From contig JBGSSS010000213.1 in NCBI GenBank assembly GCA_041736895.1, positions 25,534-89,533 of the forward strand: a stretch of DNA of 64,000 bases, written 5' to 3'. This DNA is from Pirellulales bacterium. Lineage in GTDB: Bacteria; Planctomycetota; Planctomycetia; Pirellulales; JALHPA01. A model generated the notes under the pieces. The model was not told the origin of the DNA, ran no database searches, and saw nothing but the letters and a program-made list of their open reading frames with translations. The position numbers and the translations under genes are program-made. Shown here piece by piece: positions 7,807 through 63,536 of this stretch (its first letter is position 1; every line of letters starts with the position of its first letter).

Positions 7807-7864
7807 GCACAAGCTCCGCGCGATGGTGGTTGGGCTGAATATTGTAGTACTGGCGAATTCATCC

Positions 7865-7927
7865 CAACCCGACGCGTAAGCAAGGGCGAACGGTGATTTT
7901 GACACGCCCTCGCTTACGCGTTGGGTT
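7865..7927. repeat. REP family A, inverted pair
   Basis: CAACCCGACGCGTAAGCAAGGGCG ... CGCCCTCGCTTACGCGTTGGGTT, 16-nt spacer. Confidence 0.8.
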
Positions 7928-8193
7928 AGTATCAAACTGGGAAGACTGTATAACTTGCCTGGAATTCCCAAATGTTGCAAGCCGAATGGCAAAGTAGCCA
8001 AGGTCGTAAGACCTTGGATTGAAAGACGTTGGAATCCTCACATAATCAGCGACGAAGATTGCTAGTGCAGCAACTTGTCGTATTTGCTATAGATTGTGAC
8101 ACCTCCGCCGGCTTTTGGCCCTCTGTGCCGCCACTCCGCCAGTTGCCGGCGTTTCCGATTTCGGAGTCCGCGGCCACGTTGATTGACGGATCA

Positions 8194-10210: not shown

Positions 10211-11044
10211 ATGCAGCACCTCGTTGGGCAGATTCAAGCCGCGGCCGATTACCTCCGCCAGCGCTGGAGCAAAACGCCGCTCGTCGGGGTAATCCTCGGC
10301 ACGGGGCTCGGCAACTTCACGCGCGAAATCAAAGTCGAAGTCACGATCCCCTACGGCGAGGTTCCGCACTTCCCGCATTCGACGGCACTCGGCCACAAGG
10401 GCCAATTCGTCTGCGGCACGATTGACGGCACGCCTGTCATCACGATGGAAGGACGCTTCCATGCCTACGAAGGTTACGCCCTAGAACAAGTCACACTCCC
10501 CGTCCGCGTGATGAAGGAACTCGGGATCAAACTCCTCATCATCAGCAACGCCAGCGGCGGGATGAACCCGAATTACGCCAGCGGCGACATCATGGTCATC
10601 GACGACCATATTCATCTGATGGGCGGAATCAGCCCGTTGATGGGCGTGAACGACGACCGGCTCGGCCCACGGTTTCCGGACATGTGCCGGCCGTACGATC
10701 CCGAGTTGATCGAGGCGGCGCTCGAAATCGCGAGGCGGGAAAACTTCGCCGCGCACCGCGGCGTCTACATCGCCCTGATGGGTCCGAATTACGAAACCCG
10801 CGCTGAGTATCGCTGGCTGCGGAAACTCGGTGATGTCGTCGGCATGTCGACTGTGCCCGAAACAATCGCCGCGGTCCACGCCGGTTTGCGGGTCATGGCG
10901 CTCTCGACGGTGACCAACGTCGCGAAACCAGATTCGCTCGACAAAGCGAGCGGCGAAGAAGTCATCACCGCCGCCAAATCGGCCGAACCAAAGCTTACCA
11001 AAATCGTCCGCGGGATCATTGCGCTCGAGGCGAAGAAATCCTGA
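10211..11044 (+). CDS. purine nucleoside phosphorylase (PNP family 2, inosine/guanosine type)
   Basis: ILGTGLG, GRFHAYEGY, MSTVPE motifs; ATG at 10211 gives the canonical N-terminus. Confidence 0.9.
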   Translation: MQHLVGQIQAAADYLRQRWSKTPLVGVILGTGLGNFTREIKVEVTIPYGEVPHFPHSTALGHKGQFVCGTIDGTPVITMEGRFHAYEGYALEQVTLPVRVMKELGIKLLIISNASGGMNPNYASGDIMVIDDHIHLMGGISPLMGVNDDRLGPRFPDMCRPYDPELIEAALEIARRENFAAHRGVYIALMGPNYETRAEYRWLRKLGDVVGMSTVPETIAAVHAGLRVMALSTVTNVAKPDSLDKASGEEVITAAKSAEPKLTKIVRGIIALEAKKS

Positions 11045-11046
11045 AT

Positions 11047-11149
11047 GGGACACTGATGGGACTGATTTTATGATCTTCACTGATAAGCAAATTCCAAAAA
11101 AGTCTTTGCTGATCAGTGTGTATCAGTCACATCATAAAAATCAGTGTCC
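11047..11149. repeat. composite palindrome family F
   Basis: Two about 45-nt arms of phased ACTGAT/TATGAT units around a 10-nt centre; fills the whole convergent pnp/sulfatase spacer. Confidence 0.85.
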
Positions 11150-12636
11150 TATTCTTTTGGCATGATCGGCTTGAGCAGCGCCGCGTGTTCTTTGACCACT
11201 TCGGCGTTCGCCGGATCATTCGCGACGTTGATCGTTTCATCGGGGTCCTTCTCGTGGTCGTACAGTTCTAGCACCGTGTGGCCGTCTTTCTTCGCGCGCC
11301 AGTCCGCTTTCGCGCGCCATTCGACATACCGCCAGCGATCCGTTCGCACCGCGTAACCCATCGCCGGGCCATGCTCGGGCATCGGCCGCGGATATTGGCT
11401 AAACGCTGCGGTTTTGACAGTCGCTTTTGGATCTTTCAGGAGCGGGACGAAGCTCTTCCCCTCGATCGCCGCGTCGGGCTTCACGCTGCAGAGCTCGCAT
11501 AACGTCGGGTAGATGTCGACGAACTCCGTCAGCGCGCGCGTTGCTTGGCCCTTGCTCTGCTCGTAACCCGGCGCGCGAATCAAGAGCGGCACGCGGGTGC
11601 TCGTTTCGTAATTGCTGTGCTTGCACCACATCCCGTGCTCGCCCAGGTTCCACCCATGATCGCCCCAGAGGATCACGATCGTCTTATCGGCCAGCCCCTC
11701 CTTCTCCAACGCATCAACCACGCGGCCGACTTGTGCGTCGAGGTAACTCGTCGCCGCGTAGTAGCCGTGAATTAGGCGCCGCGCCTGATCGTCCGTGAAT
11801 GGCTCGGCCTTCGGCATGTCGTTGTAGTTCCGCAACTCGCCCGAGTTGTGTCCAGCAAACGCCGGCGCGTTCTTAGGCAGGTTTTTCTCTTTGGCCAGCG
11901 TGATCTGCGCCGGATCGTAGAGGTCCCAATACTTCTTCGGTGCAACGAATGGCAAGTGCGGTTTTACAAAACCGACGGCCAAAAAGAACGGCTGGTCTTT
12001 TTTCTTCAACTCCGTGAGGCGTTCGATCGCGTGGTCGGCGACGCGCGTGTCGGCGAGTGCCGCGCCATCGCCCTCGATGATCGTCGTCGCCGGCACATCC
12101 TTGGGCCCGGACTTGGCCGCGCCTTTCTTAGGAGCTTGCGTCAGTGTCTCGCCCGGGAAGCGTGCGGCGGTTGTTTGCTTCGCCGGGGCTTGCTTGCCTT
12201 TGCCGCCGGGATTCCAGGACGGCGCGCTCCACGACGGCGCATCGTCGTAACCGCCGTGATAGATTTTGCCCATCCCTTCGGTGTGATAGCCCGCTTCTTT
12301 GAACGCTTGTGGCAACGTCTTCACTTCGGGCAGCGCCGTGCGAAAATGCGTGACCAGGTCATACACCCGCGTCGAGTCGGGCCGGCGGCCGGTCATCAGC
12401 GACGATCGTGTCGGGCTGCAGACCGCTTGCTGGCAATACGCGCGCTCGAAGCGCAAGCCCGAGGCCGCGAGCTTGTCGATGTTCGGTGATTTGACTATAG
12501 GATGTCCATAGCAAGCCAACTCCGGCCGCAAATCATCGACGGCGATGAACAGGACATTCATCTTCGCCGGCGCATCCGCGGCCAAGAGGTTGCTGCCAAG
12601 AGCAAGGAAACAGAGCAGAGCAAATCGAGAGATCAT
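11149..12636 (-). CDS. sulfatase (formylglycine-dependent, iduronate-2-sulfatase-like)
   Basis: Signal peptide, DDLRPE, CSPTRSSLMTGRRP (C-x-P-x-R) motif. Confidence 0.9.
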   Translation of the reverse strand: MISRFALLCFLALGSNLLAADAPAKMNVLFIAVDDLRPELACYGHPIVKSPNIDKLAASGLRFERAYCQQAVCSPTRSSLMTGRRPDSTRVYDLVTHFRTALPEVKTLPQAFKEAGYHTEGMGKIYHGGYDDAPSWSAPSWNPGGKGKQAPAKQTTAARFPGETLTQAPKKGAAKSGPKDVPATTIIEGDGAALADTRVADHAIERLTELKKKDQPFFLAVGFVKPHLPFVAPKKYWDLYDPAQITLAKEKNLPKNAPAFAGHNSGELRNYNDMPKAEPFTDDQARRLIHGYYAATSYLDAQVGRVVDALEKEGLADKTIVILWGDHGWNLGEHGMWCKHSNYETSTRVPLLIRAPGYEQSKGQATRALTEFVDIYPTLCELCSVKPDAAIEGKSFVPLLKDPKATVKTAAFSQYPRPMPEHGPAMGYAVRTDRWRYVEWRAKADWRAKKDGHTVLELYDHEKDPDETINVANDPANAEVVKEHAALLKPIMPKE

Positions 12637-15108: not shown

Positions 15109-15118
15109 CGCGTGATTT

Positions 15119-15224
15119 TGTAGCCCGTAGCGTTAGCGAGGGCGACAAATCACGTCCTCGAAAAAGCACTGGCCGAGCCAGTGGCACCCAGAGAAGAACT
15201 CCCTCGCTAAAGCTACGGGCTATA
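15119..15224. repeat. REP family A, inverted pair inside the arsR-SRPBCC spacer
   Basis: TGTAGCCCGTAGCGTTAGCGAGGGCG ... CCCTCGCTAAAGCTACGGGCTATA; the inner spacer has its own hairpin CACTGG-ccgag-CCAGTG. Confidence 0.85.
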
Positions 15225-15229
15225 AACCC

Positions 15230-16817: not shown

Positions 16818-17039
16818 ATGAAAGCCTCGACCAAACGCTCGATTCTCCGCTGGGTTCACATCGTGTTCGGCCTCACGCTCGTCGGGTTCATCTACGGTCC
16901 GCCGGAAGAGGTCGTGCCGTACCGCGACAACTTTCGGTTCATCTTCATGCCGGTCGTGATCGTAACGGGACTTTTGCTCTGGAAAGGACCGGCAATTATA
17001 GGACTGATTTCAAAATCCCAGAATGTTGCCACTGATTAA
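16818..17039 (+). CDS. small membrane protein (hypothetical)
   Basis: 73 aa with two hydrophobic spans; 3' end runs into a repeat arm. Confidence 0.4.
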   Translation: MKASTKRSILRWVHIVFGLTLVGFIYGPPEEVVPYRDNFRFIFMPVVIVTGLLLWKGPAIIGLISKSQNVATD

Positions 17040-17195
17040 CAGTGATAATAATTCTGATTTTCACTGATCAGCAATTTTATTAGGTCGCGATTGCGAGAGC
17101 CCCTGATAAAACGTTGACGCCCTCGCTAACGCTACGGGCTACAATCAAAATCAGATCAGTGAAAATCAGTTGCTCCATCCGTATTAATCAGTGGC
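17028..17195. repeat. composite palindrome family F (shell) with a family A REP inside
   Basis: GCCACTGATTAA...CTGATTTTCACTGATCAGCAA and its inverted partner ...ATCAGTGAAAATCAG...TTAATCAGTGGC. Confidence 0.85.
17118..17143 (-). repeat. REP family A copy (nested in a family F palindrome)
   Basis: CGCCCTCGCTAACGCTACGGGCTACA. Confidence 0.8.
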
Positions 17196-17205
17196 AAAAA
17201 ATCCC

Positions 17206-17862
17206 ATGACAAAAGATCTGAATAAACTAATGACGCCCGAGGTCGATGACTTCCTCAAGACCGCCAGCAAGTGGCCGGCGGAGTTGACGAAGCTCCGCGC
17301 GATCTTGATCGAAGGCGGCCTCACCGAAGGAATCAAATGGCGGCAGCCGTGCTACTCATACGATGGCAACAACGTCGCGATCATCGGCGAGCTGAAAAAC
17401 TGCTGCACACTCGGCTTCTTCAAGGGCGCGCAGTTCAAAGACCCTCAGGGCATCCTCGCCAAGCCGGGCGAAAACACGCAATCCGCCCGCGTGATTCGGT
17501 TCACGAGCGTCAAGGAAATCGACAAGGTCAAGTCGGCGCTCAAAGCACTGATCGAAGAAGGAATCGAACTCGAAAAGTCCGGCGCAAAGTTCGAGTTCAA
17601 AAAAGAACCCGAGCCGATGCCGCACGAACTGCAAGAGATCTTCAACAACGATTCAGCGTTCGAAAAAGCGTTCGACGCGCTCACCCCGGGTCGGCAGCGG
17701 GCGTACCTAATGTTCTTTAACGCGGCGAAGCAGTCGAAGACCAAGGTCGCGCGGATCGAGCAATACCGCGAGCGGATCTTCGACGGCAAAGGGATGAACG
17801 ACTGCACCTGCGGCCACTCGAAAAAAATGCCGGGGTGCGATGGGTCGCATAAGTATCTGTAG
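17206..17862 (+). CDS. DUF1801/YdeI-family protein fused to a C-terminal CDGSH iron-sulfur motif
   Basis: YdhG/YdeI-like body (LTPGRQRAYLMFFNAAKQSKTKVARIE) and terminal CTCGHSKKMPGCDGSH matching C-x-C-x2-S-x3-P-x-C-D-G-S-H; GTG 17191 lies in a repeat arm so ATG 17206 used. Confidence 0.8.
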   Translation: MTKDLNKLMTPEVDDFLKTASKWPAELTKLRAILIEGGLTEGIKWRQPCYSYDGNNVAIIGELKNCCTLGFFKGAQFKDPQGILAKPGENTQSARVIRFTSVKEIDKVKSALKALIEEGIELEKSGAKFEFKKEPEPMPHELQEIFNNDSAFEKAFDALTPGRQRAYLMFFNAAKQSKTKVARIEQYRERIFDGKGMNDCTCGHSKKMPGCDGSHKYL

Positions 17863-17977
17863 GATAAAAGCCCGAGGGCGTAAGCCAGGGAGTTAGGATT
17901 TTCCCAACCTATCCCGATTGGTGTATGCTGTAGCTGGCCCAGCCCAGCGAATCGCACACATCGAATAGGGGAATACG

Positions 17978-19057: not shown

Positions 19058-19175
19058 CAGGTAATGTATTCCAATCGATCAATGACAATAAATCGTGGTT
19101 GGAAAATTTTCAATTGCAGAATACTATGAAAGCAACAAAGGTGGCGAGCAATCAATCTCAAGTCAAGGTGTGAAT

Positions 19176-19391
19176 ATGGAGCTTCAAGGTGTCGTACATA
19201 ACGGAGTCATTGTGCCGGATTCTGCGATGGCACTTGAGGAAGGAACGCGAGTACGCTTTGAACCAATGATCGTTGCCAATCAGAAAACGTTTGGACAAAT
19301 CTTCGGCGATCTGATGCTCGATTGTCCCGATTTGCCGACCGATTTGGCTGACCAGCATGAGCATTACCGGCTAGGGACGCCAAAGCGATGA
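19176..19391 (+). CDS. type II antitoxin (small DUF104-like protein) paired with VapC
   Basis: 71 aa; VHNGVIVPD...LEEGTRVRF pattern; stop overlaps the PIN gene start (ATGA). Confidence 0.65.
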   Translation: MELQGVVHNGVIVPDSAMALEEGTRVRFEPMIVANQKTFGQIFGDLMLDCPDLPTDLADQHEHYRLGTPKR

Positions 19392-19786
19392 ATGTTTTTC
19401 TGGACACCTACTGTTTGATCGCGTGGATCAACACGCGCGATGCTGCGCATCAACGAGTGAAATCCTACTTAGACTTTTTCACTGGCCGCATCGTGACCAC
19501 GGAATGGATTCTGATGGAATTCGCCGATGCCTTTTCACAATCGAGCACGAAGCCATTCGCCATCGAGGCGATCGATCGCATTCATCGCCTGACGATGTTT
19601 GATGTCGTCGGACTCGACCCGCTCGTCTATCAAGCTGGTTTTGAGTTGTACAAGAACCGCTTAGACAAAGATTGGTCGCTAACCGATTGCACGTCCTTTG
19701 CGGTGATGACACAACGCGGTCTGCTGGATGCACTGACCGCGGACCATCATTTTGAGCAGGCAGGATTTCGGGCGGTGTTCAAATAA
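19388..19786 (+). CDS. vapC: PIN-domain toxin VapC
   Basis: 132 aa; acidic quartet in FLDT, MEFAD, LTDCTS, TADHHF. Confidence 0.85.
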   Translation: MNVFLDTYCLIAWINTRDAAHQRVKSYLDFFTGRIVTTEWILMEFADAFSQSSTKPFAIEAIDRIHRLTMFDVVGLDPLVYQAGFELYKNRLDKDWSLTDCTSFAVMTQRGLLDALTADHHFEQAGFRAVFK

Positions 19787-26848: not shown

Positions 26849-26862
26849 AATGCAAAAGTGAA

Positions 26863-26926
26863 AAGTCAAAATGCAAAAGTTAATGCGTAAGAAATGCATT
26901 TTCCTTTTGCATTTTGCATTTGACTT
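26863..26926 (-). terminator. hairpin abutting the glutathione peroxidase stop
   Basis: AAGTCAAAATGCAAAAG ... CTTTTGCATTTTGCATTTGACTT imperfect inverted repeat. Confidence 0.55.
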
Positions 26927-39690: not shown

Positions 39691-39704
39691 CTCGGGCAGA
39701 TAGT

Positions 39705-39916
39705 ACACTGTTTTTTTATGATGGGACTGATACACACTGATCAGCAAAATACCGGAATGACTTGAGACTCAGTTCATCGCCAACCCAAGCCTGCTGATGG
39801 TAAGCCCATCGGCAGGAGAACGCGTGATTTCATTTTGATCAACATTCACCTTAGCTAGCTTGCATCAAGAAATTTCTGATCAGTGAAAATCAGTATCATC
39901 ATAAAAATCAGTGTCC
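39705..39916. repeat. composite palindrome family F (shell) with a family G REP inside, thrC-dapB spacer
   Basis: TTTTTATGATGGGACTGATACACACTGATCAGCAAA ... TTTCTGATCAGTGAAAATCAGTATCATCATAAAAATCAGTGTCCC. Confidence 0.85.
39778..39821 (+). repeat. REP family G copy
   Basis: CGCCAACCCAAGCC-TGCTGATGG-taagc-CCATCGGCA-GGAGAAC. Confidence 0.85.
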
Positions 39917-39948
39917 CGCTCTCTGCATTCATTTACTAACAACGAAAA

Positions 39949-52557: not shown

Positions 52558-52609
52558 TGGAGATTCCCTTGAAATATTTGAAGTGGAAGGTGTTTTGAGA
52601 TTCGGAATT

Positions 52610-52812
52610 GGACACTGATTTGACTGATGCAACTGATTTTCACTGATCAGTCAGGTTGTAGGTTTTAAGTTGTAGGTAATGAGCCATGACTGCATCTACT
52701 TACAACCTACTACCCATAACTTACAACCGGAACACTCCCTGGCTTACGCCGCGGGCTTTCAATGCGTTTGCTGATCAGTGTTAATCAGTTATATCCGCGT
52801 CATCCGTGTCCC
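52610..52812. repeat. composite palindrome family F (shell) with family H and a degenerate family A element inside, groES-groEL1 spacer
   Basis: GGACACTGATTTGACTGATGCAACTGATTTTCACTGATCAG ... TTTGCTGATCAGTGTTAATCAGTTATATCCGCGTCATCCGTGTCCC. Confidence 0.85.
52654..52728. repeat. long hairpin family H
   Basis: GGTTGTAGGTTTTAAGTTGTAGGTA ... TACTTACAACCTACTACCCATAACTTACAACC. Confidence 0.75.
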
Positions 52813-52826
52813 ATTCCGGAATTGAT

Positions 52827-53126: not shown

Positions 53127-53168
53127 GAGTAAGTTTCCTGTTATTGAAGTGAGTTGAGTGTTTGTTCT

Positions 53169-53194
53169 CGTTACCAAGCCCCAGCTTGGTAACG
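53169..53194. promoter_or_regulatory. inverted repeat CGTTACCAAG-N6-CTTGGTAACG, copy 1 (upstream of groES)
   Basis: Perfect 10-bp arms, 6-nt spacer, 43 nt upstream of the groES ATG. Confidence 0.45.
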
Positions 53195-53239
53195 TGGTCT
53201 AAAGTGACCGTTGATAATTGAAAGTCTTCTCGCAGTTCA

Positions 53240-53265
53240 CGTTACCAAGGTGGGCCTTGGTAACG
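53240..53265. promoter_or_regulatory. inverted repeat CGTTACCAAG-N6-CTTGGTAACG, copy 2 (just downstream of groEL2)
   Basis: Identical 10-bp arms and 6-nt spacing, 24 nt after the groEL2 stop; may also act as a terminator. Confidence 0.45.
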
Positions 53266-53288
53266 AGTTGTTGCAGGACTCGCCTTGC

Positions 53289-57277: not shown

Positions 57278-58041
57278 TTTCTCCTCGTCATCGCTACGGC
57301 GATGACGAGGCTTGGGTTGGCGCTGAATTGGCTTTTGCAGTAGCTCGAGAGTATGCAGCTTGAGTACACTTTCTTTGGAGGCAGATGATGAAGCGTCCGC
57401 GTCCTCCGCTACGTCCGCACAAGCGCGATGGACGAACGTGGTATCACGTCGTTTTGACTGCGTACGGTAATTGGCTCCCCGGCGATCCGCGTGGATTTCG
57501 TACGCCAAAACATGAAGAGCACGTCGAGGGTGATTACAAGAATCCGCCACCCGAGGGAAAGTACGATGGCTTGCACAGGGCAAGCAAGGAATCGATGGTT
57601 GATCCGCGTTATCGAATTCCGAAGAGCGTTTTCGAGAAAGTTGGAAATGCTTTAATTGACGTTTATACTGACAAAAATGTCTTTGTCATGTGTTTGAGCA
57701 TCCAAGGCGCGCATTGCCATTTGCTGTTAAAAGCATACCGCTTTTACCTGCACAAGTTCACGGCGTTGGCCAAACGCAAAGCAGCAGTCGTCTGCCGTAA
57801 AGTCTCTGGAAAACGCAGAATCTGGGCGCGTAAACGTTCGAAAAAAGTGATTCAGGACTTGCCACACATGCGGCGTACTTACAAATACATTCTCCGACAC
57901 GCGGAGCAGGGAGCTTACACCTGGAAAAGCGATCTGCCCTGCCCCTAACAAATGTTGACTGCAAAGAAGATCACTGAATTTCGTCTATGTTCCTTCAGCG
58001 CTAACCCAAGCCTCGTCATTGCGCAGCAATGGCGAGGAGAA
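57278..58041 (+). mobile_element. REP-RAYT-REP unit
   Basis: REP copies at 57278-57327 (minus orientation) and 57994-58041 (plus orientation) bracket the Y1 transposase gene in inverted orientation. Confidence 0.7.
57385..57948 (+). CDS. IS200/Y1-type HUH transposase, REP-associated (RAYT-like)
   Basis: WYHVVLTAYGNWLPGDPRGF opening, HUH motif in GAHCHLLL, Tyr motif RRTYKYILRH about 55 aa downstream (IS200-like spacing), 187 aa, lower GC, flanked by inverted REPs. Confidence 0.75.
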   Translation: MMKRPRPPLRPHKRDGRTWYHVVLTAYGNWLPGDPRGFRTPKHEEHVEGDYKNPPPEGKYDGLHRASKESMVDPRYRIPKSVFEKVGNALIDVYTDKNVFVMCLSIQGAHCHLLLKAYRFYLHKFTALAKRKAAVVCRKVSGKRRIWARKRSKKVIQDLPHMRRTYKYILRHAEQGAYTWKSDLPCP

Positions 58042-60489: not shown

Positions 60490-60550
60490 GAAGGGAAAAG
60501 GAAAAAGGAAAAGAGGAGACCGCGCCACCTTTTCCCTTTTTCCTACTTCC
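60490..60550. repeat. purine/pyrimidine hairpin family J (upstream of hom)
   Basis: GAAGGGAAAAGGAAAAAGGAAAAG-aggagaccgcgcc-ACCTTTTCCCTTTTTCCTACTTCC; shares the 17-mer GGAAAAAGGGAAAAGGT (opposite strand) with the thrC copy. Confidence 0.75.
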
Positions 60551-60711
60551 TTCAGTACGCTGTGCAGTAGCGGAACTCACCCCCGTATTGACGCTTCTAG
60601 CCCTGCCAAATTAGGATAGCTAGATTCTGGATTGCTGGTATTGGCCGGCCTTGCAGCACGAACTTAAATCCTTGCCAGCGAAATAATTACGACGGACAAG
60701 CGAACACGACG

Positions 60712-62013: not shown

Positions 62014-62093
62014 GGTTTTAAGTCTTAGGTTGTAAGTTATAGGTAGCGACTTTGTTTCTTCTACCTACAACTTATAACCTACAACCTATAACC
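62014..62093. repeat. long hairpin family H (directly downstream of hom)
   Basis: TTAGGTTGTAAGTTATAGGTAG ... CTACCTACAACTTATAACCTACAACCTATAACC. Confidence 0.8.
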
Positions 62094-63355: not shown

Positions 63356-63366
63356 CCTTCAGAAAT

Positions 63367-63482
63367 GGATCACGGATGACACGGATTTTACGGATGAGCA
63401 CAGATTAGAAAACTTGGGTATTTCTTCTAACTTGACTCTTCTGATCCGTGTACATCAGTGTCATCCGTCAAATCCGTGATTC
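63367..63482. repeat. composite palindrome family F variant (ACGGAT units), apgM-lysC spacer
   Basis: GGATCACGGATGACACGGATTTTACGGATGAGCACAGAT ... TCTGATCCGTGTACATCAGTGTCATCCGTCAAATCCGTGATTC. Confidence 0.8.
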
Positions 63483-63536
63483 GCTTTTTTCAGATTCATT
63501 CTAACTTCTAACTCCTTCTTTCTAGATTCTTCCCCC

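Follow-up and report, generated by a model that had tools for sequence, protein, structure and literature searches.

Inverted phased-unit arrays in a Pirellulales genome may be the empty shells of a small GxxExxY gene cassette

Main

We analysed a 64,000-nt stretch of a Pirellulales contig (hereafter the window; G+C content 56.5%) that carries five copies of a composite palindrome, which we call family F. Each copy consists of two inverted arms of ~50 nt, with four units per arm and the unit consensus CAC-N-GAT, around an ORF-less interior. In close relatives, the same arms enclose a gene of the GxxExxY family, suggesting that the window elements are empty shells of a cassette that resembles the intervening sequences (IVS) of 23S rRNA. 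On balance, we take the family F copies to be MITE-like shells, devoid of an ORF, that derive from a small, selfish and IVS-like cassette with a GxxExxY gene. The ApgM of the window is identical to a protein on a 118-kb NCBI contig, and the nearest named relatives are Pirellulales and Blastopirellula; an exact-sequence look-up of its GroEL gave no entry. Because neither the window nor the record of its 118-kb source contig contains a GxxExxY gene, the link to the gene depends on the relatives.

Results

Five palindromic elements in the window

An earlier note on this DNA had described palindromes at five loci, and elements were present at all five. An arm profile, built from the ten window arms and run against all the DNA that we fetched, together with Pfam assignments for the neighbouring genes, delimits them as follows.

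F1, 11043-11154, unstranded: compact shell; left arm 11043-11095, gap or loop of 5 nt, right arm 11101-11154 (arm profile, E 1e-11 and 2e-13); fills the spacer between the convergent genes of a PNP_UDP_1 phosphorylase (+) and a sulfatase (-) (Pfam).
F2, 17025-17197, unstranded: shell in the TTGCCACTGAT dialect; left arm 17025-17078, right arm 17150-17197 (arm profile); interior 17079-17149 contains an A-type REP (CCCTCGCTAACGCTACGGGCT; comparison copy I10 at 15117-15226); lies upstream of a DUF1801/OmdA gene, the shell ending 10 nt before its ATG (Pfam).
F3, 39700-39921, unstranded: left arm 39700-39751, right arm 39867-39921 (arm profile); interior holds a G-type REP (AACCCAAGCC and a hairpin, ~39778-39820); between a PALP (thrC-like) gene (+) and dapB (+) (Pfam).
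F4, 52603-52818, unstranded: left arm 52603-52657, right arm 52762-52818 with ACGGAT and ACTGAT units mixed (arm profile); inside are an H-type palindrome of phased units (GTTGTAGGT, ~52654-52725) and, at ~52730-52756, an A-like REP; between groES (-) and groEL (-) (Pfam).
F5, 63364-63483, unstranded: shell in the ACGGAT dialect; left arm 63364-63416, right arm 63433-63483 (arm profile); between apgM (+) and lysC (+) (Pfam).
Remnant arm, 63484-63536, unstranded: sequence TCTAACTTCTAACTCC...; immediately upstream of lysC.

The flanking pairs named previously (thrC-like/dapB, groES/groEL and apgM/lysC) are borne out by Pfam. The cores reported as TATGAT and, at 63367, ACGGAT were also found, as was the mixed right arm of F4. 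The nesting of other repeats (A in F2, G in F3, H and A-like in F4) is visible in the sequence, and these families recur elsewhere in the window; the G-type REP inside F3 is of the same type as the REPs that border a RAYT-like ORF at 57385-57948. The span first assigned to F4, 52558-52826, is a little wider than the element proper.

Conservation of unit sequence and phase

Alignment of the ten arms yielded the consensus (A)GAAT-N-GGACACTGAT (also AGAAT-AGGACACTGAT)-nnn-ACTGAT-nnn-ACTGAT-nnnC-ACTGAT-CAG(CAAA), in which the GAT ends of successive units are spaced 9, 9 and 10 nt. The 9-10 nt phasing claimed earlier thus stands, and the excess over shuffled sequence agrees with it: when up to three mismatches were allowed, GATNNNACTGATNNNCACTGATCAG, a degenerate 19-base pattern derived from units two to four of the arm, recognized nine of the ten arms (9 matches, where shuffles gave 0.01). 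The sequence CTGATCAG occurred 7 times against 0.9 expected (an approximately eight-fold excess), with 6 of the 7 occurrences inside family F elements. Inverted four-unit arms had been correctly recognized, but not their length of ~45 nt: the arms reach ~5 nt further out, because a common (A)GAAT-N-GG precedes the first unit. The interiors measure 5-125 nt and are variable and non-coding.

In 31 paired elements, we compared each left arm with the reverse complement of its right arm. Identity at the fixed core positions was 0.94, while the 3-nt spacers were no more alike within an element (0.30) than between elements (0.35; permutation p = 0.97). At the core position that varies between T, G and A, the match rate was 0.67 within and 0.62 between elements, a difference that is not significant. 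As the cores are conserved and the spacers are not, the conserved feature is unit sequence and phase rather than stem complementarity. What is maintained, by selection or by faithful copying, is therefore the units and their phase and not stem pairing, and RNA-stem covariation is rejected, as neither the spacers nor the variable core position co-vary between arms. At an orthologous site in two soil acidobacterial genomes, the arm is identical at 28 of 28 positions where the flanking coding DNA is ~84% identical, and the spacer outside the arm has diverged and changed in length.

Folding of plus- and minus-strand transcripts, which the earlier note had put forward as a check, gave long predicted hairpins for the family F shells on both strands (z -5.7 to -9.8; F1, MFE -43.8, z -7.4). 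The predicted stem is a series of 6-7-bp core helices separated by regular 3x3 internal loops.

Several familiar classes of site were considered for the arms and rejected. DnaA boxes match at only 5 of 9 positions, and CsrA sites (A(N)GGA) fit the ACGGAT dialect alone. Arm-type integrase sites, the iterons of partition sites and direct repeats of the OmpR/PhoB type cannot account for hundreds of copies.

Distribution and placement between genes

An exact-pattern scan, run once on each collection, returned 22 loci from a genome collection and 63 from a metagenome collection (85 in total). Barring three obvious chance matches, these share the family F design, and their hosts include Bacteroidota, Terriglobia/Acidobacteriota, Verrucomicrobiota, Ignavibacteriota and a gammaproteobacterial MAG. 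Some copies in Bacteroidota are perfect eight-unit palindromes centred on CACTGATCAGTG, a sequence for which a literature search found nothing relevant. In verrucomicrobial contigs, an ACTAAT dialect occurs in parallel with the ACTGAT dialect. Soil (Acidobacteria-like) contigs often carry a CTTACC-prefixed arm that is solo and well preserved; such solo arms are not predicted by a strict terminal-inverted-repeat model, and we count them against the cassette reading.

Many arms lie 5-45 nt from stop or start codons. Among 48 elements, 31 were in co-directional, 10 in convergent and 7 in divergent spacers, compared with 173, 47 and 43 background spacers, respectively, under crude gene calls. A bias towards intra-operon spacers is thus absent on these calls, and the statement that the palindromes sit between functionally linked genes describes three of the five window loci, all co-directional, without amounting to a preference.

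These placements bear on the possibility that the elements belong to the host, as arrays bound by one of its regulators or nucleoid proteins, or as mRNA-stabilizing or processing hairpins comparable to BIMEs, which is how the earlier note read them. Conservation confined to unit cores in helical phase, the intact solo arm shared by the two soil genomes and the strong predicted hairpins are all compatible with such a role. We nevertheless consider it unlikely, since no class of spacer is enriched and the genes bordering the five shells have no common function by Pfam, since presence, dialect and content vary at the same spacer between close relatives, and since a universal host factor cannot explain why unit sequence depends on the clade to which the enclosed gene belongs (both described below). 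The suggestion of a protein-binding platform was partly right, in that core-only conservation fits sequence-specific reading of the units.

The general form of family F, with terminal inverted repeats of ~50 nt, a short, variable, non-coding interior, multiple copies and presence or absence between relatives, is also that of an ordinary MITE mobilized by an insertion sequence with a DDE transposase, whose binding sites the subterminal repeats would be. However, no direct repeat that could be a target-site duplication surrounds any of the five window copies, and at the 85 loci found by pattern we saw no transposase gene, either within an arm pair or adjacent to an arm. The pattern scan recovered no family F locus from viral contigs, and BLAST of plasmid and phage collections with F1 gave nothing similar. 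An origin of this kind seems very unlikely to us. A full-length partner with the same ends does occur in relatives, where it encodes a GxxExxY protein (predicted PD-(D/E)XK).

The genome is rich in REP families, and REP, REPIN and BIME repeats resemble family F as abundant intergenic palindromes that form head-to-head dimers or clusters and nest with other families. Mobilization by a RAYT (HUH Y1) transposase could also draw on the RAYT-like ORF in the window, whose homologues are named RayT by JGI, and on precedents in R. baltica, which has many tyrosine-transposase genes with flanking repeats, and in Acidobacteria, which have RAYT relatives flanked by terminal inverted repeats (Di Nocera et al., PMC3733652). 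The basic REP or BIME unit, however, is a self-folding imperfect palindrome of 20-40 nt with a GTAG or CGTC tag conserved at one end (PMC3733652), whereas family F arms are direct-repeat arrays that pair only with each other, and their ends read (A)GAAT-N-GGACAC. The RAYT-like ORF is bordered by G-type REPs and not by F arms. A phmmer search with an approximate Escherichia coli YafM query found no RAYT near the arms at 22 loci, and all-against-all clustering of ORFs near the arms at the 85 loci returned only syntenic housekeeping genes, without a recurrent neighbour family. We accordingly hold this explanation to be highly improbable and do not retain the BIME analogy. Genes adjoining the solo arms at three loci (L011, L012 and L017), and those enclosed by two arms 2.6 kb apart at L061, were likewise ordinary. 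Searched against Rfam, the window and 20 of the loci yielded no family at its gathering score; at the E-value threshold there were only weak, unrelated matches.

A GxxExxY gene between family F arms in close relatives

The contig L086 comes from a close relative, with 86-88% nucleotide identity to the window and an ApgM that is 96% identical in amino acids. It carries F shells in the same groES-groEL and apgM-lysC spacers and another after lysC. Between valS and leuA, it has a gene encoding 133 aa (TIGR04256, 3e-38; PF13366, PDDEXK_3, 4e-39), which is framed by one arm at 17383-17429 and another at 17861-17898. The cassette is laid out as an arm, ~15-20 nt with a Shine-Dalgarno-like AAGGAG, the ORF, 6-20 nt and an inverted arm. 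It recurs at leuA/valS in relatives whose proteins are 95%, 74% and 70% identical, with both arms every time and gene lengths of 131-138 aa. The arms use the GGACACTGAT or the TTGCCACTGAT dialect, the two dialects that are also present in the window. As this is one orthologous locus, it counts as a single origin within Pirellulales.

An AF2 model of the cassette protein (pLDDT 93) has a PD-(D/E)XK fold and weakly matches PD-(D/E)XK nucleases, including Cas4, Hjc, lambda exonuclease and a splicing endonuclease (E ~2e-3 to 3e-2); by sequence, the protein has no match in the PDB. PF13366 is entered as 'unknown' in a survey of the PD-(D/E)XK superfamily (PMC3424549). With E values up to 0.001, the GxxExxY family comprises 30,501 clusters at 50% identity. 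The titles and abstracts retrieved for the name 'GxxExxY' contained no paper on this subject. A role as a defence gene was considered and rejected: PADLOC matches were weak and sub-threshold (Cas4, E 0.003), and there was no PHROGs family.

Selection, replacement and turnover

The GxxExxY genes of L086 and L089, two contigs that are 86% identical in nucleotides and hence as distant from each other as the window is from L086, have a dN/dS of 0.02. By this comparison of substitutions, the cassette gene is under strong purifying selection and is a working gene. Between L086 and L092, nucleotide identity falls from ~89% to 63-72% precisely over the cassette, whose ORF is 74% identical with saturated dS, whereas the flanking leuA is 97% identical in amino acids with a dS of 0.59. 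A drop confined to the cassette, set against a conserved leuA, shows that the cassette was replaced in situ by a divergent copy.

The ORF-less shells also turn over. Both the window and L086 have a shell between groES and groEL, and the 65-nt spacer of L088, a relative whose ApgM is 75% identical in amino acids to that of the window, has none. The loop of this shell is 36 nt in L086, and the window copy, F4, carries extra nested repeats of ~85 nt. The apgM-lysC shells of the window and L086 occupy the same site in different dialects (ACGGAT and ACTGAT, respectively) and with different spacers. Neither an excision footprint nor a clean pair of empty and filled sites with identical flanks was found.

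GxxExxY cassettes in other phyla

A tblastn search of plasmids and a look-up of homologues supplied further, independent GxxExxY genes. The loci taken in were from Bacteroides, Bernardetia, Prevotella, Sphingomonas, Verrucomicrobiota, Gemmataceae, Fusobacteriota and a Bacteroidota-like contig. Most of the independent genes, in six other phyla, are bordered by inverted arrays of phased units, and the genes lie mostly between co-directional host genes (for example, fabD-fabG, hemC-hemD/cobA, radA and ade). The flanking units are as follows.

Bernardetia and Bacteroides finegoldii: CACAGAG.
Verrucomicrobial contig and one further contig: ACAGGAT.
Sphingomonas: CGCGAAG.
Gemmataceae: ACGCAGAT and ACGCGGAT.
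Bacteroidota-like contig and fusobacterial plasmid: ACGGAT and ACTGAT.
Prevotella: ACAAATC.

A crude array scan of 15 loci, each compared with 60 shuffles, placed 8 above all or all but one of their shuffles; 11 of the 15 were equalled by no more than 3 of 60, and two (Gemmatirosa and Treponema) had no paired arrays. The window-derived arm profile gave E values of only 0.01-0.7 on these cassettes, so that the design is common to them and the F sequence is not.

Unit type tracks protein clade. The two proteins flanked by ACAGGAT units are 69% identical and each other's best match, as are the two flanked by CACAGAG units (55%), and identities in the ACNGAT group are 53-74%. Since neutral DNA is randomized at such protein distances, the unit cores must be constrained, and differently for each GxxExxY clade. 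The constraint is thus better attributed to the protein that the cassette itself encodes than to a factor shared by all hosts, such as RNase III.

Four-helix-bundle cassettes and 23S rRNA IVS

GxxExxY genes are not the only ones found in this setting. In L087 and L088, genes for the four-helix-bundle '23S rRNA intervening-sequence protein' (PF05635), which is related to the DGR protein Avd, have the same design with G-rich units. The PF05635 cassette of L088 occupies the apgM-lysC spacer, and the remnant arm at 63484-63536 of the window matches its right arm (CTAACCCC units). As four-helix-bundle cassettes encode no nuclease, the arms cannot be nuclease sites in every type of cassette.

The 23S IVS of Coxiella is a selfish element whose 28-bp terminal inverted-repeat stem is cut by RNase III, with a four-helix-bundle ORF inside and tandem GACAGAT heptamers before that ORF (PMC4990558). 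IVS of this kind (Coxiella and Leptospira; PMC4990558) resemble the full-length cassette as small selfish inserts in a transcribed region, with terminal inverted repeats that form a stem around a small ORF, and the core of the short direct repeats before their ORF is related to that of family F. Their ORF may decay while the RNA stem persists, and cassettes of the same PF05635 design are present in relatives of the window genome. The differences are that 23S IVS sit in helix 25 or 45 of 23S rRNA, whereas all five window elements lie between protein-coding genes, and that the window copies are ORF-less and multi-copy. The IVS stem, moreover, is a near-perfect 28 bp that is cut by RNase III, whereas the predicted stem of family F consists of four phased units with non-complementary spacers.

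That two unrelated protein families occupy similarly designed shells raises the question of whether the shells are primary, that is, palindromes that spread alone and whose centres are favoured landing sites, with the GxxExxY and four-helix-bundle genes and the A, G and H REPs as unrelated inserts and the nuclease without a role in shell biology. The three different REP families held by the window shells, the insert in F4 that its L086 counterpart lacks and the compact shells with a perfect CACTGATCAGTG centre fit this account, and because F shells also enclose unrelated REPs, enclosure alone is no proof of a functional link. Random insertion would not, however, make unit type co-vary with GxxExxY clade across phyla. 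In addition, arms are kept with the ORF down to 70% protein identity, whereas the ORF-less groES-groEL shell is already gone at 75% ApgM identity, and the ORF is co-oriented with the host genes and has its own ribosome-binding site inside the arms. We therefore think it improbable that the shells came first.

Discussion

The cassette reading that we favour can be put as a series of steps. The full-length cassette of the relatives comprises a four-unit CAC-N-GAT arm, a ribosome-binding site, a gene for a GxxExxY PD-(D/E)XK protein of 131-138 aa and an inverted arm, placed co-directionally between host genes. The unit cores are probably iterated recognition sites for the protein that the cassette encodes. 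Supplied in trans from full-length copies, this protein may maintain or spread the shells, and it could do so by cutting the ~50-nt arms and recombining through them or, alternatively, by a step akin to transposition. A shell transcribed from either strand would fold into the ~45-bp stem of 6-7-bp helices and 3x3 internal loops, which, by analogy with the 23S IVS, is probably a substrate of RNase III. Cutting there would separate the messages of the two neighbouring genes of an operon, at low cost to the host.

Such a cassette combines features of several known systems. With free-standing homing endonuclease genes and MITEs it shares a small nuclease gene, a fixed site, flanking homology, replacement in situ by a divergent copy and many ORF-less derivatives, although it belongs to no recognized homing-endonuclease family and no target-site duplication was seen. 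With REP, REPIN and BIME repeats, family F would share dependence on a single-copy enzyme encoded elsewhere; the enzyme of the REP/RAYT system is an HUH protein, whereas the gene enclosed by F arms encodes a predicted PD-(D/E)XK protein.

Two families of heptamer arrays come closer in sequence or arrangement. Cyanobacterial STRR repeats are of the same kind as one of these, the GGGNATC arrays. The other, the TAACTGA arrays of Beggiatoaceae, Cyanobacteria and Bacteroidetes (MacGregor 2015, PMC4679880), has nearly the core of family F, as (TAACTGA)n reads ...ACTGAT.... According to the available part of that report, TAACTGA arrays are also intergenic, have 2-6 units per set, often abut start codons and show a patchy spread over several phyla that suggests horizontal transfer; they keep a strict 7-nt period, mostly in one orientation and almost never as inverted pairs, whereas family F has a 9-10-nt period, variable 3-nt spacers and inverted pairs. 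A nuclease or enclosed gene is not mentioned in that part of the report (PMC4679880). The GGGNATC or GGGGA(C/T)T arrays of Xanthomonas and Nostoc (Rehm 2015, PMC4692102), as far as the available text of that paper goes, share with family F a preference for about four units and frequent inverted pairing, with 70-75 convergent (inverted) pairs per Xanthomonas genome and locations within 50 bp of starts or stops. They differ in unit sequence and period and are interpreted by the authors as G-quadruplex formers, and in the same text no cassette or protein partner is proposed (PMC4692102). The PF05635 cassette arms in L087 and L088 use G-rich units of the GGGNATC kind. Both sets of heptamer arrays are perfect head-to-tail repeats of 7-nt units, in contrast to the 9, 9, 10 nt period and variable spacers of family F.

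A broader proposal can be made only tentatively, and we rate it as possible rather than probable: that GxxExxY proteins and, by extension, the four-helix-bundle proteins of 23S IVS are engines or passengers of unrecognized mini mobile cassettes whose ends are inverted phased-unit arrays read by the encoded protein. The ORF-less derivatives of such cassettes would include family F and probably the TAACTGA and GGGNATC/STRR arrays, and the cassettes would be the origin of rRNA IVS. The palindrome (centre CTGATCAG), or the cruciform extruded from it, might then be the substrate on which the PD-(D/E)XK nuclease works, much as an enzyme of homing or resolution does.

The TAACTGA and GGGNATC/STRR arrays, the rRNA IVS and the GxxExxY and S23p/four-helix-bundle protein families are each described in the literature as of unknown function. 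The present evidence links them through a single design, in which phased-unit arrays in inverted orientation border a small gene and many empty shells remain, and so gives widespread, puzzling intergenic repeats a genetic context. Should the encoded nuclease indeed read the units, this would represent a new mobility mechanism and a function for tens of thousands of proteins, and in Planctomycetota, Bacteroidota, Acidobacteriota and Verrucomicrobiota the spacers of many operons would contain probable RNase III sites of selfish origin.

Annotation of the arm-flanked proteins

Gene callers extend GxxExxY ORFs into the repeat arm: the annotated C-terminal extension of some of these PD-(D/E)XK-fold proteins is the translation of the right arm (L115 1501-1959; L122 571-999), as exemplified by NPVHPVIP, translated from ATCCTGT units. 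In the representative library, the best-scoring proteins (250-270 aa; P0367-P0371 and similar) contain two GxxExxY domains; they represent either genuine fusions or tandem cassettes in which the gene caller read on from one ORF into the next.

A RAYT-like ORF and other elements of the window

The following features lie outside the family F shells.

57385-57948 (region 57285-58040), + strand: RAYT-like ORF, 187 aa, with HUH-like and Y-motif signatures
7858-7935 and 7986-8017: sub-threshold Acido-Lenti-1 RNA match and adjoining A-type REP pair
19092-19786: small ORF, then a PIN-domain gene (PF01850, 5.8e-6)
53167-53267: inverted pair around the groES start, 30 nt, 93% complementary (CTCGTTACCAAG...CTTGGTAACGAG)

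The RAYT-like ORF had no match in Pfam, NCBIfam, PADLOC or PHROGs, and its signatures (HCHLLL and YKYILRH, respectively) were read by eye. Its 596 homologues are for the most part planctomycete; 'REP element-mobilizing transposase RayT' is the JGI name of several. The ORF lies between inverted G-type REPs (AACCCAAGCC plus hairpin); the ensemble therefore looks like a REPtron for the G-type repeat nested in F3, the family F shell between the thrC-like gene and dapB.

The small ORF and PIN-domain gene are probably a toxin-antitoxin pair. The inverted pair at groES takes in the first groES codons and some of the spacer that leads to the upstream copy of groEL; judged by eye, it bears no likeness to CIRCE.

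Short-unit arrays in soil contigs

F-like arms in soil contigs directly adjoin other short-unit arrays (L012 4335-4400; L034/L051/L056; L069; L035/L037/L080; L026; L038). These comprise TGCCAnAAn in three to five copies, unequal in number between the orthologous loci L012 and L023, four copies of CCGATCAC, ATTTGTAAnTG, and arms of CGGAT units that follow arms of CTGAT units in direct tandem. Two of these loci, both with F-like arms, also hold Acido-Lenti-1 matches above the gathering score (L035 99-145; L038 357-402). The match in the window scores 27 bits, the gathering score being 37.

Phased-unit arms beyond family F

Phased-unit arms are not exclusive to family F in the window genome, since family H and two further palindromes consist of phased units as well.

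52654-52725: family H palindrome, units GTTGTAGGT / ACCTACAAC
62026-62088: family H palindrome, units GTTGTAGGT / ACCTACAAC
26849-26920: palindrome of family-H-like style, TGCAAAA units
60490-60553: palindrome of family-H-like style, GGAAAA units

In two relatives, four-helix-bundle genes (PF05635, Avd-like) are inserted between apgM and lysC (L088 11349-11720) and between sucC and sucD (L087 6007-6384). Both are bordered by inverted arrays whose units are G-rich (GGGGTTAG; TAGGGAN, 7-nt period) and of the same kind as in the published GGGNATC/STRR repeats. The family H palindromes and the two of similar style in the window could represent shells left by different kinds of cassette.
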